Source: Planctomycetota bacterium (lineage in GTDB: Bacteria > Planctomycetota > MHYJ01 > JACQXL01). From it: a DNA stretch of 64,000 nucleotides. Shown piece by piece: positions 16,453-22,661 of this stretch (the stretch's first letter is position 1; every line of letters begins with the position of its first letter). The translations under genes were made by a program, and so were the position numbers. The stretch covers positions 97,226 to 161,225 of the forward strand of contig JACRIK010000021.1 of NCBI GenBank assembly GCA_016235865.1, read 5' to 3'. The notes beneath the pieces were generated by a model. That model did no database searches and was not told the DNA's origin. It worked only from the letters and a program-made list of their open reading frames with translations.

Positions 16453-18988
16453 TAAGGCTTCTGGTGCAGGCGCTAAGGCCAAACCGGCCACCAAGATTAA
16501 GTTCAAGTCGCCAGTTGATGCCTCTGGCGCCCCTGAAGCAAAATCAGAACCGGTAGCTAAGGTCAAAAAAGCCAAGGTGGTGTTGCCGGCAACGAAAGGT
16601 AAGTCACTGGTGATTGTCGAATCGCCGGCCAAAATCAAAACCATCAGCAAGATTCTGGGCAGCGATTATGTCATCACCTCGTCTTACGGCCATATCCGTG
16701 ACCTGCCCAAGAGCAAGCTCGGCATAGATATCGAGGACAATTTCAAGCCCGGCTATATCATCATGCGCAAGCAGATAAAGAATGTCAACGCGCTGAAAAA
16801 GATGGCGGCCGCGTCCAATGGCGTGTATCTGGCCACTGATCCGGACCGGGAAGGCGAGGCCATTGCCTGGCACCTGTCCGAGATTCTGGGCATGCCGCCA
16901 GATAAGTTCTGGCGGGTGAGTTTTGACGAGATTACCGCGCCGGCCGTTAAGGAGGCGTTCAGCCATCCCCGTAAGATTTCCATAACCCTGGTCAATGCCC
17001 AGCAGACCCGGCGTTTCCTGGACCGGATTATGGGCTATAAATTATCACCGCTCCTCTGGGACAAGATAACCCGGGGCCTGTCAGCCGGCCGGGTCCAGTC
17101 CGTGGCGCTTCGGCTGGTGGTGGAACGGGAAAGGGCCATCCGGTCATTCAAGCCCCAGGAGCACTGGAAAATAACGGCTGACCTGTCCCACGCGATGCCG
17201 CATGGCTGTCGCGCCCATCAGGGCAAGGACATATTTAACGCGACACTTTACAAACTTAACGACTCCAATGTCGGCAGTCCGATGGACGGCAGCGCCAATA
17301 TCTGGATTGGCTCGGAAACCGAATCCAAGAAACTGGTCGAGCGCCTCGGGAAAAGCGATTTCAAGGTGCTGGGTATAACCGAACGCGAAAGCAACCAGTA
17401 TCCGGCGCCGCCGTTTATCACCAGCACGCTCCAGCAGACCGCGTCCATCAAGCTCAATTTCAGCCCGCGCAAGACCATGATGATTGCCCAGCAATTATAT
17501 GAAGGCGTGGAACTGCCGGAAGGCCCGGCCGGCCTGATTACCTATATGCGCACCGACTCGGTCCGGGTCAGCGAGGTGGCTATCAAGGAATGCCGGAGTT
17601 TTATCGCTAAGCACTTCGGAGAGGGGTTGCTTAATCCGGAAGCCCGGCATTACAAGCCCAGCAAACAGTCCCAGCAGGCGCACGAGGCCATCCGGCCGAC
17701 CTATCCGGCCAAGATGCCGGATGATATCGCCCAATACCTGACCAGAGACCAGTATAAACTCTACACCCTTATCTGGAAACGGTTCACGGCCACCCAGATG
17801 AAACCGGCGGCCTGGAAGAGCAAATCAGTGGAGATTGAATCGCAGTTGGCGCCAGCACTGGAACTGGAGGTCTTCTCCAATGACAAGCGGCACAAGCTCA
17901 TCGCCGAAAAGATACTCGCCTCAGTTGGGTCCGGCCAGAACGGGGCAGTGCTGGAAAAAATCATAACCATATTAAGCCGGAACAAGCAGGACGATGAGAC
18001 GGCCCGGAAAATCATTGAAGCCCTGGGGCAGAATGTGGAAGACAAGGCATTAACCGCCCGGATAATCGGCATCATGGATGAAACCGTGGACGGTGCTCTG
18101 ATACTTGAGAAGATGAACGTAGCCAGATGCCTTTGGAGCGCCAATGAACGCCGGCTGGTGGCTCCGGGATTTATGACCCTCTATAATCCCGAGGAGCAGT
18201 TATTGCCCGGCTTAAAAGAATCCGGCAAGCTGGACGTAGCGCAAATCATCCCGGCCCAGTCGTTTACCGAACCGCCGCCTTATTACAACGAGGCATCGCT
18301 GGTCAAGGTCCTGGAAAAATACGGCATCGGCCGCCCGTCCACCTACGCGCCGATTATTGCCACCATCCAGGACCGGGGCTATGTCATCAAGCGGGCCCGG
18401 CAGTTGACGCCGACTGATTTAGGCCTGCTGGTCAACGACAAACTCGTGCCGTTCTTTGAGGATATCATCAATACCCAGTTCACGGCCCGGATAGAAGAGG
18501 AACTGGATTTGATTGAGGAAGGCCAGAAGGAATTGGTCCCGACATTAAAGGAATTCTACGCGCCGTTTGCCAAGGACTTGGAAAAGGCCCAGGCCGAGAT
18601 GACCAGCGAAAAGGGCAAGGAGAGCGGCGGGAAATGCCCACTGTGCAATAGTCCGATTGTCGAACGCTGGTCCCGGTTCGGCAAATTCCTATCCTGTTCG
18701 GCATTCCCGGAATGCCGGCATACCGCATCGCTCAAGCCAAAGGCTGAGCCGGAAAAGACCGACCAGGTCTGCGAAAAATGCGGCAAGCCCATGGTCATCC
18801 GGTTCAACCGCCGGCGCAGAACCCGGTTCATCGCCTGCTCCGGATATCCGGACTGCAAAAACGCCAAGCCGTTCAAGAAACCCGGTGAAGAGGCAGAAGC
18901 GGCCCCGGAGCCGGCCCGGAAACAAAGCCCGTCGGTTGAAGAGACCGAAGCCAACGGCACTTCAGCAGAAGAGACAGCCGCTAACTAA
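16418..18988 (+). CDS. topA: DNA topoisomerase I
   Basis: 856 aa; TOPRIM 'VIVESPAKIKTI', C-terminal Zn ribbons; Lys-rich N-terminal extension (true start uncertain). Confidence 0.9.
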   Translation: MNMKKKTKKKIAKASGAGAKAKPATKIKFKSPVDASGAPEAKSEPVAKVKKAKVVLPATKGKSLVIVESPAKIKTISKILGSDYVITSSYGHIRDLPKSKLGIDIEDNFKPGYIIMRKQIKNVNALKKMAAASNGVYLATDPDREGEAIAWHLSEILGMPPDKFWRVSFDEITAPAVKEAFSHPRKISITLVNAQQTRRFLDRIMGYKLSPLLWDKITRGLSAGRVQSVALRLVVERERAIRSFKPQEHWKITADLSHAMPHGCRAHQGKDIFNATLYKLNDSNVGSPMDGSANIWIGSETESKKLVERLGKSDFKVLGITERESNQYPAPPFITSTLQQTASIKLNFSPRKTMMIAQQLYEGVELPEGPAGLITYMRTDSVRVSEVAIKECRSFIAKHFGEGLLNPEARHYKPSKQSQQAHEAIRPTYPAKMPDDIAQYLTRDQYKLYTLIWKRFTATQMKPAAWKSKSVEIESQLAPALELEVFSNDKRHKLIAEKILASVGSGQNGAVLEKIITILSRNKQDDETARKIIEALGQNVEDKALTARIIGIMDETVDGALILEKMNVARCLWSANERRLVAPGFMTLYNPEEQLLPGLKESGKLDVAQIIPAQSFTEPPPYYNEASLVKVLEKYGIGRPSTYAPIIATIQDRGYVIKRARQLTPTDLGLLVNDKLVPFFEDIINTQFTARIEEELDLIEEGQKELVPTLKEFYAPFAKDLEKAQAEMTSEKGKESGGKCPLCNSPIVERWSRFGKFLSCSAFPECRHTASLKPKAEPEKTDQVCEKCGKPMVIRFNRRRRTRFIACSGYPDCKNAKPFKKPGEEAEAAPEPARKQSPSVEETEANGTSAEETAAN

Positions 18989-18991
18989 CGA
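18878..18991. repeat. direct repeat L (topA 3' end), paired with 19949-20047
   Basis: 72-bp core identical but 2 mismatches to 19949-20020, both end in ctaactaacga. Confidence 0.85.
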
Positions 18992-19103
18992 CCTTACCCC
19001 TAAAGACATTCCGATTGACAATTCTTGCCCGGCAAAGGCCAAAATGGTAGGATGGAATAAATGGGTCTTCCGGGAATTCCACTGGTTTCGGAAGGAGTAA
19101 ATT

Positions 19104-19943
19104 ATGAATAATGAACTTGTGCCGGTTACAAAAATAGCCGTTTTTCGCGGCCGGAAAATACGCAAAACCATCCACAAAAACGAATGGTGGTTTTCTATAG
19201 AAGATGTAGTTCGGGTCCTTACAGATTCATTACAACCAGCCGGATATATTAAGGATATGCGGCGCCGGGACCCGGAGATAGCCAAAGGGTGGGGGCAAAT
19301 TGCCACCCCCCTTTTGATTCAAACAGCCGGCGGTCCGCAAAAGGTGAATTGCGCTAATACCGAAGGCATGTTCCGTATTATCCAGTCCATTCCCTCGCCC
19401 AAAGCCGAGCCGTTCAAACGCTGGCTGGCTAAGGTGGGCTACGAGCGGGTCCGGGAGATAGAAGACCCGGAACTCGGCACCAAACGCACCCGGGCATTGT
19501 ATAAAGCCAAGGGCTACAGCGATGACTGGATAGAAAAACGGATGCGCGGCATTGCCATCCGCGAGGAACTGACCGACGAATGGAAAAAGCACGGAGTTGA
19601 AAGGGACAAGGAATACGAGATTCTGACCGCGGAAATCTCCCAAGCGACATTCGGGCTTACCCCGAGCCAGTATAAGAAACTCAAAAACCTGAAGCGTCAA
19701 AACCTGCGCGACCATATGACCGACCTGGAACTGATTTTCTCTATGTTAGGCGAGGCGTCAACCACCCAGATTACCAAGGTGGAACATCCGGACGGATTTG
19801 TGGAAAACAAGAAAGTGGCCCGGCGGGGCGGCAATGTGTCCGGAATAGCCCGCAAGAAACTGGAGCAGGAAACCGGCGGCCGGGTGGTCAGTCCGCAAAA
19901 CTATCTGGCAAATCAGCAGAATAAACGGCTAAAAGATAAGTAA
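19104..19943 (+). CDS. DinD-like DNA-damage-inducible protein with Bro-N-like N-terminal domain
   Basis: 279 aa; N-term 'KIRKTIHKNEWWFSIEDVVRVL' Bro-N-like; C-terminal region resembles E. coli DinD. Confidence 0.6.
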   Translation: MNNELVPVTKIAVFRGRKIRKTIHKNEWWFSIEDVVRVLTDSLQPAGYIKDMRRRDPEIAKGWGQIATPLLIQTAGGPQKVNCANTEGMFRIIQSIPSPKAEPFKRWLAKVGYERVREIEDPELGTKRTRALYKAKGYSDDWIEKRMRGIAIREELTDEWKKHGVERDKEYEILTAEISQATFGLTPSQYKKLKNLKRQNLRDHMTDLELIFSMLGEASTTQITKVEHPDGFVENKKVARRGGNVSGIARKKLEQETGGRVVSPQNYLANQQNKRLKDK

Positions 19944-19948
19944 TGGCA

Positions 19949-20047
19949 AAACCCGGTGAAGAGGCAGAAGCGGCCCCGGAGCCGGCCCGGAAACAAAGCC
20001 CGTCAGTGGAAGAGACCGAAAGCAGCGACGAAGCTACTAACTAACGA
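19949..20047. repeat. direct repeat R (orphan copy of topA 3' tail)
   Basis: copy of aaacccggtgaagaggcagaagcggccccggagccggcccggaaacaaagcccgtc...gagaccgaa...ctaactaacga. Confidence 0.85.
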
Positions 20048-20163
20048 ATCAATTCCCACAACCAGTTAATTGCTGGACATTCCGGGCGGGATTTTCTAAG
20101 TTTAAGGCATAAAATCAACCTCTATCAATAAAGAATTAGTGTATCCCCGGAATTAGAATTCGT

Positions 20164-22026
20164 ATGAATTTTCTGCGTAAAATATTTAAGAAGAAAGCGC
20201 AGGTTGATCCTGCCAATGATCCTAACATGGTAAAGGCCTATGATGGATATGGTCGGGAAATATTTATCTCCAAACAGCAATGGAAGGACAAGGTACTCCT
20301 GAAGAATCTAGAGGAGAAACGCAACAATCCTAATCAGCTTTATGATTGGCTTTTCTTGGCACTGAAAGATGGATTTGTGCAAGATATTGTTCCTTATGCC
20401 GAGCATTTATGGCGCACTGACCCTATTCCATCCAGGGGAGCCGCAGTACTCGGTATTGTCTATATGAAGAATAACCGCTTGGATGAGGCGGAACGAGTAT
20501 TAAATGATTTCCTGTCAGCACATGGCGATAATGGGGTTGTTCTGACTAACTTGGCAAAGGTATACGATAAACGGGGGGATAAAGCAAAAGCCGAATCAAT
20601 TCTTTGGCATGCCTTGGAGGTTGACCCTAATCAGGAAAATGGGCTTGCTTGGTATATTGCAATTCAGAGTGAGCGGGGAGGCGAAGCGTCGGTACTCGAT
20701 GCCTATCATCATATCGCCGCTTGGCCCAAAAGCTGGAGGGTCCAGCTTTGGTTGGCGCGTGAGGCGCTTGCACGCAAAGATTTGCCAGCTGCGGAGGCAT
20801 TTTACGCGGAAGTATTTGCCAGGGCTGAGCGTCCGGTTCCCGATTATGTCCTTACACAAATAAGTGGAGACTTAGGTAAGAACGGATATCTGGCAGAGAT
20901 GTTTCGTCTGGTCGAGCCTCATTTTGACCCGGCTATTCACGGCTTTAATGTTGGAAATAATCTTATAATGGCCAATCGTGAACTTGGTCGCACAGATATT
21001 GCCCGGCGTATTCTAAATCAGCTTTATGCCCAGAAACGTCCTGATTGGCAGCATGCGTTAAAGTACTGGGACACTGAACTTGCCAAAGACGAAGTAGCGC
21101 GCAAGGCGCAACAAAACCCCGGACAATCTATTGTTTTCATTTCAACAGAAGGTCCGTTATGGGCAAGTAAGGAATCCCCATTTGCAGTTCTCATGCCGGC
21201 TAAATCTGGTAACACACCGCAGATTGCCGTTTTGGGAAGCATGGCCTTGTTTTCGGAGTTATCCAAAAAGCCTGTGCCTCAACTCAGCGATGCTCCGGGC
21301 CGTATCAGCCGGATTGTTGCTCTTTTTCTGGCTGAAAAAATCCACCTTCAAACCGATGCGGTTGGTATAGCTTTAACTCCTTGGGCGCAAAAACTAGGGT
21401 TTGCTGTTTTTGGTAATCCCTACGGCGACAAGGATCTCTGTGAAGTTGCATGTAAGAGTGTGAAAGTTCCGCATTTTATCGTTGCTGTCAATTTTGATGC
21501 TACCCAGTTAAAATGGAAAATGATACTACGCTTATTGAGGGTGAGTGATTGTGTGCGTGTTGCAGAAGAACAGATTGAAGCCGATCCGCTGAATCCCGGA
21601 CCAGCTATTGAGCTTTTAGCTCAAACGCTTCAACAGTTGCTTGCTAAATACGCCGGGGTGCATATTACGGCACATCCGCAATGGTACCAGAATCTATCCG
21701 GACCGGATTTATCTGACTATCTTCTGCGGCTTGAGCAACAACTTGCAGTAATATGTAAAAATCTCGATTTCCTCGAAGGAGGAGGTTTGTTCGGGGAACA
21801 TGAAATCATTGATGGTGTTTTGCAACTCTGTCTAAGTCAGCCGGCAAGCCAATTGGTTAGAATGGTTCTGGCCCAAACGCTCCGGCAGATGAGCAAATTG
21901 CACCCGGAACTTATTTCCGAATATAAAGATAAGATTAATTTACTCCAACGGACTCATCTTCTGACAGGAGAAGTTGGCGAATTGATTAATAAAGCCATTA
22001 ATCAGACAATGACACGGACGGCTTAG
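20164..22026 (+). CDS. hypothetical protein, TPR-like N-terminal region; atypical codon usage
   Basis: 620 aa ORF; codon usage (cgt/gca/ctt, lower GC3) differs from neighbours. Confidence 0.55.
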   Translation: MNFLRKIFKKKAQVDPANDPNMVKAYDGYGREIFISKQQWKDKVLLKNLEEKRNNPNQLYDWLFLALKDGFVQDIVPYAEHLWRTDPIPSRGAAVLGIVYMKNNRLDEAERVLNDFLSAHGDNGVVLTNLAKVYDKRGDKAKAESILWHALEVDPNQENGLAWYIAIQSERGGEASVLDAYHHIAAWPKSWRVQLWLAREALARKDLPAAEAFYAEVFARAERPVPDYVLTQISGDLGKNGYLAEMFRLVEPHFDPAIHGFNVGNNLIMANRELGRTDIARRILNQLYAQKRPDWQHALKYWDTELAKDEVARKAQQNPGQSIVFISTEGPLWASKESPFAVLMPAKSGNTPQIAVLGSMALFSELSKKPVPQLSDAPGRISRIVALFLAEKIHLQTDAVGIALTPWAQKLGFAVFGNPYGDKDLCEVACKSVKVPHFIVAVNFDATQLKWKMILRLLRVSDCVRVAEEQIEADPLNPGPAIELLAQTLQQLLAKYAGVHITAHPQWYQNLSGPDLSDYLLRLEQQLAVICKNLDFLEGGGLFGEHEIIDGVLQLCLSQPASQLVRMVLAQTLRQMSKLHPELISEYKDKINLLQRTHLLTGEVGELINKAINQTMTRTA

Positions 22027-22077
22027 TGATACGACTTTCTAGTCCAGGGACACAACAAATTATCCTCCATCCTTACA

Positions 22078-22455
22078 GCGACCATAGAGTATCCCCTAAG
22101 CGGGGGCGGTCTATCCCCTAAGCGGGGATGGGCTATCCCCTAAGCGGGGAGGGGCTATCCCCTAAGCGGGGACGGGCTATCCTCTAAGCGGGGAGGGACT
22201 ACCCCCTAAGCGAGGGTGGACTATCCCCTAAGCTGGGAGGGGCTACCCCCTAAGCGGGGTGGGGCTACCCCCTAAGCGGGGATGGGCTATCCCCTAAGCG
22301 AGGTGGGGCTATCCCCTATGCGAGGTAGGGCTATCCCCTAAGCGAGGTGGGACTATTCCCTAAGCCGGGACGGGCTATCCCCTAAGCGGGGACGGACTAT
22401 CCCCTAAGCCGGGAGGGGCTACCCCCTAAGCGGGGATGGGCTATCCCCTATGCGA
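22078..22455. repeat. tandem array, ~17 copies of 22-bp unit CTATCCCCTAAGCGGGGATGGG
   Basis: head-to-tail copies with point variation, no spacers; stops in all frames. Confidence 0.9.
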
Positions 22456-22661
22456 GGATGGGGTATCACGGGTGCGGGGATGGGGGGAGGGGGGAGGGGG
22501 GATACCCCACCCCCCACCGTCTGAACCGGTTTTTGAGATAATAACTTTATGGATAAATGGTTACGCCAAAACCCGAGTGATTTTGGTAGCAGATTTCAGC
22601 CCGGATTACTTATTTAACGAGACATTAGACGACTTTTGGGGGTCGATATTGGCCTTTTGTT

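Follow-up and report, generated by a model that had tools for sequence, protein, structure and literature searches.

The 64,000-nt stretch of DNA analysed here (the window; assembly GCA_016235865.1, contig JACRIK010000021.1, positions 97,226-161,225, forward strand) belongs to a Planctomycetota bacterium and carries topA, the gene for DNA topoisomerase I. Immediately behind topA lies a solitary gene for a protein with a Bro-N domain, which matches the PADLOC model PDC-S13, and this gene is bracketed by two copies of the topA 3′ end. The features of the locus are collected in Table 1. Coordinates are positions in the window unless preceded by an L-number; L-numbers (L002, L163 etc.) denote comparison loci and WIN denotes the window locus.

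Table 1. Features at the 3′ end of topA and in the adjoining DNA.
Feature	Position	Strand	Basis or remark
topA, DNA topoisomerase I, 856 aa	16418-18988	+	TIGR01051, E 2.4e-220
Tail copy A, in-frame functional topA end (KPGEE...ETEANGTSAEETAAN, stop); putative incoming allele	18878-18991	+	Alignment, repeats, L164-like codons
Leader, 112 nt, topA stop to Bro-N ATG	18992-19103	+	AAGGAG ribosome-binding site 8 nt before ATG
Solitary Bro-N/PDC-S13 gene, 279 aa	19104-19943	+	Pfam Bro-N, PADLOC PDC-S13, PHROG 15286
Trailer, 5 nt (TGGCA)	19944-19948	+	Repeat begins at 19949
Tail copy B, displaced silent topA tail (...ETESSDEATN, stop); putative resident allele	19949-20047	+	Alignment, repeats, L163-like codons
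Strain-variable region, topA tail to ROK-kinase gene	20048-22661		Comparison with L163 and L164
Tetratricopeptide repeat (TPR) gene	20164-22026		Lies within the strain-variable region
Tandem array, 22-nt unit	22090-22470		~17 copies

The topA tail is present twice

TopA carries the Toprim, Topoisom_bac and Zn_ribbon_Top1 domains by Pfam. The last 114 nt of its gene (copy A, including 3 nt past the stop codon) recur downstream as the 99-nt copy B. An earlier note on this DNA, made from the letters alone, had claimed both the duplication and the alternative C-termini that result from it; a repeat search (direct repeat of 79 nt, 94% identity, spacing 1071 nt, plus a terminal 16-mer) and a MAFFT alignment bear out the former, and the C-termini read as it had stated. 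In the alignment there are 2 mismatches across the first 73 nt (18878-18950 and 19949-20021), with 56 nt identical, while the remainder (41 nt in copy A vs. 26 nt in copy B) differs by 8 substitutions and a 15-nt in-frame indel. Accordingly, the predicted C-terminus is ...ETEANGTSAEETAAN for copy A and ...ETESSDEATN for copy B. The 11-mer CTAACTAACGA closes both copies and is found nowhere else in the 64 kb (0.01 occurrences expected). Neither a second Bro-N gene nor a third topA tail is found elsewhere in the window.

The insert encodes a single Bro-N protein

The insert between the tail copies spans 18992-19948 (957 bp) and contains one open reading frame (ORF). Its 279-aa product matches Pfam Bro-N (PF02498; E 1.8e-12, 48.2 bits against a cutoff of 25.6, residues 19-110), PHROG 15286 (1.7e-88) and, over the full length, the PADLOC PDC-S13 hidden Markov model (HMM; E 2e-112, residues 9-275 on profile positions 5-274 of 286); no NCBIfam model matches it. 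In the AlphaFold2 (AF2) prediction the Bro-N domain is confident at residues 6-115 (pLDDT ~88), and the conserved C-terminal half is helical and of low confidence. A Foldseek search of the structure against the PDB returned nothing below E 0.2, and a PDB sequence search found no solved relative.

E. coli DinD is SOS-inducible and is reported to inhibit RecA. The window protein has the same size, the same arrangement of an N-terminal Bro-N domain (Pfam, 1.5e-7 in DinD) followed by ~170 aa, and the motif K.LK..Q.L.DHM..EL. A direct comparison yields marginal similarity (27% identity over 90 aa and E 0.01 by BLASTP; hhalign probability 1.2%). Thus, of the earlier description of a 957-bp insert encoding a 279-aa Bro-N/DinD-like protein, the insert, the ORF and the Bro-N domain stand, and the likeness to DinD comes down to the shared architecture and a short motif.

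The match to PDC-S13 makes this a candidate phage-defence gene, predicted by embedding. PDC systems are predicted from their position inside defence operons (‘guilt-by-embedding’; Payne et al. 2024, bioRxiv 10.1101/2024.01.29.577857), and the searchable text of that study does not report anti-phage activity for PDC-S13. Our literature search on PDC-S13 itself, and on Bro-N/DinD proteins in defence, found nothing specific. As expected of PDC-S13, the HMM match is full-length and relatives are co-oriented with their neighbours and embedded within type I cas operons (see below); unlike these, the window gene sits behind topA and not inside a defence system.

The GC content of the gene (51.8%) matches that of its flanks (52.0%), which would point to a donor from within the clade. 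The leader holds no terminator on the + strand and no consensus promoter, and its RNA fold is no better than that of shuffled sequences (z 0.44). Neither the 112-nt leader nor the sequence past copy B has a significant BLAST match in any of the fetched loci, and resemblances between leaders seen by eye were therefore left unused. At the 3′ end of the gene, TAATG (19941-19945) overlaps the Bro-N stop codon and opens a 33-aa ORF (MAKPGEE...DEATN) that ends at 20044 in the original topA frame; this ORF is probably incidental, and translational coupling could occur.

The two tails resemble the topA ends of different relatives

A protein search, the only source of close TopA relatives, yielded two proteins 94% identical to the window TopA, those of L163 and L164; a metagenome scan with the TopA C-terminus gave no match closer than 55% identity. 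In L163, topA (91.2% nucleotide identity) ends in a single tail, ...SNGASSEEATN; a Bro-N gene, a TPR gene and a second topA tail are all absent. At the position of Bro-N, this locus carries an N6_N4 methyltransferase and a MutH-like endonuclease, a pair resembling a restriction-modification (R-M) system (L163:4861-6413), with no tail duplication; a tandem array and the ROK-kinase gene follow. The earlier note had suggested looking for a relative with an empty site: L163 supplies the single tail without Bro-N, but its site is occupied by the R-M system and so is not cleanly empty.

In L164, topA (91.9% nucleotide identity) ends in ...EANGVDATESR, with a premature stop before the relic ...GCTAACTAACGC. 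Repeat-rich DNA ~340 nt downstream of this topA holds a 178-nt piece of Bro-N that matches window positions 19206-19383 at 100% identity, and the contig ends soon past it. By our own arithmetic, the chance of 178 identical nucleotides at 92% identity is ~4e-7. Since the fragment is identical while topA is 91.9% identical, the Bro-N cargo shares more recent ancestry than the topA flank. Bro-N has been linked to topA in this clade. The L164 fragment is flanked (L164:7812-8229) by ~40-nt direct repeats (TACAGCGCACCGGGTACAGGATGG...AAATAAATT), spaced 380 nt, and by GTGTCCCC motifs, which points to rearrangement through the repeats or to a small repetitive element.

In a four-way alignment, copy B has the state of L163 and L164 at both early mismatches, and copy A is derived, both of its changes being synonymous. 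After the residues ETE, copy A continues with GCC and ends ...AAN, like L164, while copy B continues with AGC and ends ATN, like L163. Together with the uneven divergence, these few characters show the two tails to be different topA alleles, one of them apparently imported. Further upstream, informative sites that are L163-like or L164-like stand at 47:32 in 16713-17912 vs. 36:61 in 17913-18991 (Fisher p=0.004), a shift that a crossover near 17.9 kb would fit; the last third of topA may thus have been imported as well.

The Bro-N gene family is widespread, solitary and mostly chromosomal

The best 120 of at least 8000 database matches to the Bro-N protein are 74-100% identical to it. A scan of one genome per species confirmed at least 590 relatives among the 600 pattern matches listed, at 64-80% amino-acid identity, and a search of the full library gave 650 representatives (50% clustering, E<=1e-30). 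The family occurs patchily in at least 15 phyla at about 65-85% amino-acid identity. Its hosts include Planctomycetota, Omnitrophota, many lineages of the Candidate Phyla Radiation (CPR), Gamma-, Beta- and Alphaproteobacteria, Desulfobacterota, Verrucomicrobiota, Chlamydiota, Bacteroidota, Fibrobacterota, Elusimicrobiota, Nitrospirota and others, as well as one Methanosarcinales metagenome-assembled genome (MAG). The gene is almost always solitary and chromosomal, and it is rare on mobile DNA (4 phage records, 21 plasmids and 13 IMG/VR loci). It is co-oriented with the upstream ORF in 69 of 78 loci and with the downstream ORF in 64 of 79, often with gaps of a few nucleotides. Its GC content tracks that of the flanks (r=0.85, mean difference 0.04 points), and most copies are therefore taken to be long-term residents. 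Almost no tandem Bro-N remnants are seen in the comparison loci.

Three kinds of setting recur: after tRNA-Ser genes, between housekeeping genes (for example folD and panB in L002) and within cas operons. In Omnitrophota, a distance of 68-71 nt separates the gene from a preceding tRNA-Ser gene of one of three isoacceptors; the context is tadA-tRNA-[BroN]-dnaX-recR, and there is no integrase. These tRNA-Ser loci (L013, L024, L034, L060 and L061; also L020, L025, L035 and L049) have the anticodons GCT, GGA and CGA; a conserved leader with a hairpin precedes the Bro-N gene, and L020 and L025 have an additional degenerate tRNA 3′ end directly before this leader. In Desulfobacterota, the gene lies within type I cas operons, at the junctions Cas6e/Cas1, Cas5/Cas1, Cas7/Cas4 and Cas4/Cas1. 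The loci with this setting are L016:3953-4813, L019:3995-4840, L028:3992-4840 and L056:3995-4816, and also L044, L066, L072 and L008. There the gene always borders the adaptation module, its start and stop codons often overlap the neighbouring genes, and in four loci the neighbours were confirmed by Pfam.

Two genomes carry two copies in different contexts, namely: L005 and L060 (MAG CAIOPG01; 68% amino-acid identity) and L009 and L021 (MAG JACPEW01; 85%). Such pairs are old paralogues or independent acquisitions and not products of recent transposition; at 68-85% identity, they argue against recent bursts of the gene.

Flanking direct repeats recur across the family

Following a further suggestion of the earlier note, we looked for other cassettes with flanking target duplications by comparing the 300 nt upstream with the 300 nt downstream of each Bro-N ORF, with shifted intervals as controls, and such duplications do recur across the family. 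A direct repeat flanks the gene in 9 of 77 loci (~12%) compared to 5 of 269 controls (2%; odds ratio 7, p=7e-4). Because flanking repeats exceed those of the control intervals, the architecture seen in the window is a trait of the family. Wider comparison windows add the repeat loci L015, L050, L068 and L081.

The repeats are 14-214 nt long and differ between loci in sequence and in target. In the window, L026, L047 and L081, the repeated segment is the 3′ end of the upstream ORF through its stop codon, and the downstream copy keeps both the frame and the stop. In L035 it is 15 nt of a tRNA-Ser 3′ end, and in L074 a terminator. The downstream copy mostly begins 0-40 nt past the Bro-N stop codon. 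Leaders and trailers are not conserved between loci. Some repeats are short and nearly identical (11-12 nt in L003, 22 nt in L005 and 41 nt in L027). A tblastx search for older displaced tails at lenient thresholds was swamped by noise (19 of 78 real loci vs. 26 of 139 controls) and added only a decayed aminotransferase tail in L038.

The duplication as a proposed scar of one-sided recombination

In our preferred reading, to which we give an even chance, the duplicated tail is the scar of DNA from a related strain, imported by homology-anchored, one-sided recombination that displaced the resident tail. The incoming fragment would have consisted of the 3′ part of topA, tail A, the leader and Bro-N. 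On its left side, it would have undergone homologous recombination with the resident topA; on its right side, it would have been joined illegitimately at 19948/19949, 111 nt upstream of the resident stop codon. Tail A, which now terminates TopA, would be the incoming end, and the resident tail B would have been pushed downstream and silenced. At this joint the window reads BroN-TGGCA-AAACCC; the resident gene has ...TTCAAG in front of the same position. Such a process is known as homology-facilitated illegitimate recombination (HFIR) or C-terminal displacement, and the same product would result if a circularised fragment integrated by a Campbell-type single crossover. Which copy came in, and in which direction, is inferred, as are the route of the DNA into the cell, the nature of the right-hand joint and the function of the protein.

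This reading would account for the variable lengths of the repeats, for their unrelated targets and for the absence of a recombinase. It would also account for repeats that reach the end of the upstream feature (the window, L026, L047, L081, L035 and L074), since the homology between donor and recipient would stop there.

Several observations weigh against it. Neither a donor haplotype nor a clean empty site (topA-tailB-TPR) was found among the relatives. The allelic signal consists of two codon characters in a low-complexity tail, and the putative breakpoint falls in a generally mosaic region. The right joints are tighter than random illegitimate joining predicts, which hints at a defined right end, and the placement 68-71 nt after tRNA-Ser looks integrase-like. 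The repeat in L027 is the 5′ end of the downstream gene, and that in L080 is internal to the upstream gene. Synonymous and non-synonymous differences in the pooled repeat pairs stand at ~18:20 (our own tally, with L015 and L080 framed by hand) and do not discriminate between the models. Finally, every sequence compared, the window included, comes from a metagenome assembly. As the tight right joint and the association with tRNA-Ser are not fully explained by displacement of a tail, models with an integrase acting in trans or with a self-mobilising gene retain some probability.

The first of these holds that an integrase encoded elsewhere used an att site at the 3′ end of topA to insert a miniature or decayed element, akin to a cis-mobilisable element (CIME), which carried a replacement tail; we consider it unlikely. 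The model is in keeping with the classical appearance of attL and attR, in which the 3′ end of a gene is duplicated and its replacement has diverged; the relatives behind three tRNA-Ser isoacceptors in Omnitrophota, together with the tRNA-Ser end duplicated in L035, fit it too. Nonetheless, no integrase is found in the insert, as the earlier note had said, nor among ten previously unannotated ORFs of >=230 aa in 5142-40359, all of which are housekeeping genes, as are the ORFs adjoining the insert; the inspected 8-kb neighbourhoods of the homologous loci contain none either. The targets are unrelated (topA, another gene end, a methyltransferase gene, a terminator, a tRNA and a gene 5′ end) and the repeats range so widely in length that one site-specific recombinase does not fit. 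There is no common core and there are no conserved element ends; the 11-mer CTAACTAACGA, which had been put forward as an att-like core, turns out to be the conserved topA stop region of the clade, where L164 has CTAACTAACGC. Of the earlier view that an integrative element brought a replacement end, the imported end is retained, the tails being different alleles, and evidence for an element of the integrase type is lacking.

Two further readings ascribe the spread to the gene itself. In one, which we regard as a long shot, PDC-S13/Bro-N would be a selfish gene without a recombinase that uses the end of a former neighbour (a conserved gene end or the 3′ half of a tRNA-Ser) as a portable homology arm; its DinD-like protein would perhaps steer the RecA-dependent recombination of the host towards sites directly behind conserved genes, where insertion of the cassette displaces the gene ends. 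In the other, the self-mobilising model, which we judge still less probable, the Bro-N/PDC-S13 protein itself would promote insertion at gene and tRNA ends with target duplications of variable length. The patchy spread over many phyla, the short distance from stop codon to downstream repeat in most repeat-bearing loci, the precise placement between operon genes (cas operons included) and the predicted DNA-binding N-terminal domain all speak for such an autonomous element. However, no catalytic domain is recognised in the protein, whose C-terminal half is predicted to be all-helical and has no structural or PDB match. In addition, the termini are not conserved, the GC content has ameliorated to that of the host, copies in the same genome have diverged as described above, and the window tails were not identical at origin. 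More conventional transposition is not indicated: no inverted repeats bracket the insert, no transposase domain is found by Pfam, and the trait of transposons and insertion sequences (IS), a target duplication of fixed length, is missing, as the repeat length varies.

An assembly chimera, in which the strain haplotypes topA-tailA-BroN... and topA-tailB-TPR... were joined through a shared 56-72-nt repeat, also appears very unlikely. The metagenomic origin of the loci, a repeat shorter than typical reads and the end of the L164 contig near its Bro-N fragment would allow for it, but joining through the shared repeat would not create the unique joint behind Bro-N, and the architecture recurs in independent assemblies of other phyla, 7-fold over controls. 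In-situ duplication, whether by a staggered break or by slippage of replication during insertion, with the copies diverging afterwards, is the least probable of all: the direct repeats do flank the insert and those of L003, L005 and L027 are short and nearly identical, but copy B shows no derived change in its first 73 nt, and yet the copies differ by 8 substitutions and the 15-nt indel over the last 41 nt, a pattern that gradual divergence cannot explain, and the tail ends match different relatives.

Strain-variable DNA downstream of topA

Between the topA tail and the ROK-kinase gene, the window differs from L163 and L164. The tandem array in this region consists of CTATCCCCTAAGCGGGGATGGG-like units and ends in a G-rich/C-rich palindrome; in L163, the corresponding place ahead of the ROK-kinase gene is taken by another 22-nt tandem array of different sequence (L163:6566-7027). 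The TPR gene is bracketed by an inverted pair, GTATCCCCGGA (20141-20151, + strand) and GTGTCCCTGGA (22043-22053, - strand). A similar inverted pair in L163 (L163:6448-6570), with sequence to its right homologous to window positions 22050-22080, encloses only ~100 nt, for which reason the TPR gene is possibly a second, independent cargo. Motif counts alone, that of GTGTCCCCRGA in the window included, are not above chance. Since L163 carries an R-M system at the same spot, we regard the topA 3′ flank as a hot spot for several cargoes.

Within topA, residues ~258-265 of the protein (window ~17190-17215) comprise 8 extra residues, HAMPHGCR, compared to the 94%-identical relatives (..ADLSAHQGKD..); this segment is a small in-frame insertion.

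Comparison with known systems and significance

The topology of C-terminal displacement was proposed for Rhs and type VI secretion system (T6SS) effector arrays (Kirchberger et al. 2017, PMC5361080), and HFIR is cited there after de Vries & Wackernagel 2002 and Prudhomme et al. 2002. Displacement in Rhs, contact-dependent inhibition (CDI) and T6SS loci shares with the window a homology anchor in the conserved upstream part, a new 3′ end with cargo, a direct repeat and an orphaned tail. Unlike in those arrays, the target here is the non-toxic acidic tail of a housekeeping gene, the cargo is a separate, complete gene, and other phyla show the pattern again at a large number of genes and tRNAs that are unrelated to one another.

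Integrase-borne islands and CIMEs offer a second comparison, with attL/attR-like repeats, reconstitution of the 3′ end by the element and, among the relatives, a frequent position beside tRNA-Ser. The window differs from them: an integrase is missing from the insert and its vicinity, the loci share no core, the repeats vary in length and lie at unrelated targets, and the cargo is one gene in 0.96 kb. Finally, transformation yields merodiploid duplications via host recombination (Johnston et al. 2013, PMC3784515). Here as in Campbell integration or transformation merodiploidy, host recombination with a partly homologous fragment would make direct duplications without a dedicated recombinase; in contrast to the published duplications, which span 100-900 kb and are bordered by IS elements, the repeat here is ~100 nt long and lies beside a single gene.

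If our preferred reading is true, the end of a housekeeping gene would serve as a landing pad for accessory or defence-candidate genes that arrive via ordinary host recombination. The scar would then be dated and readable and would show the incoming DNA, and genome-wide mining for such scars could trace recent gene flow in uncultivated lineages. The 280-aa family is more conserved across phyla than most defence genes and is found embedded in cas operons and behind tRNA-Ser. The interest of the locus lies mainly in the recurrence of its architecture across phyla, and the family-wide pattern deserves follow-up: recurrent flanking duplications provide a handle on how ‘embedded’ genes enter operons without breaking them.

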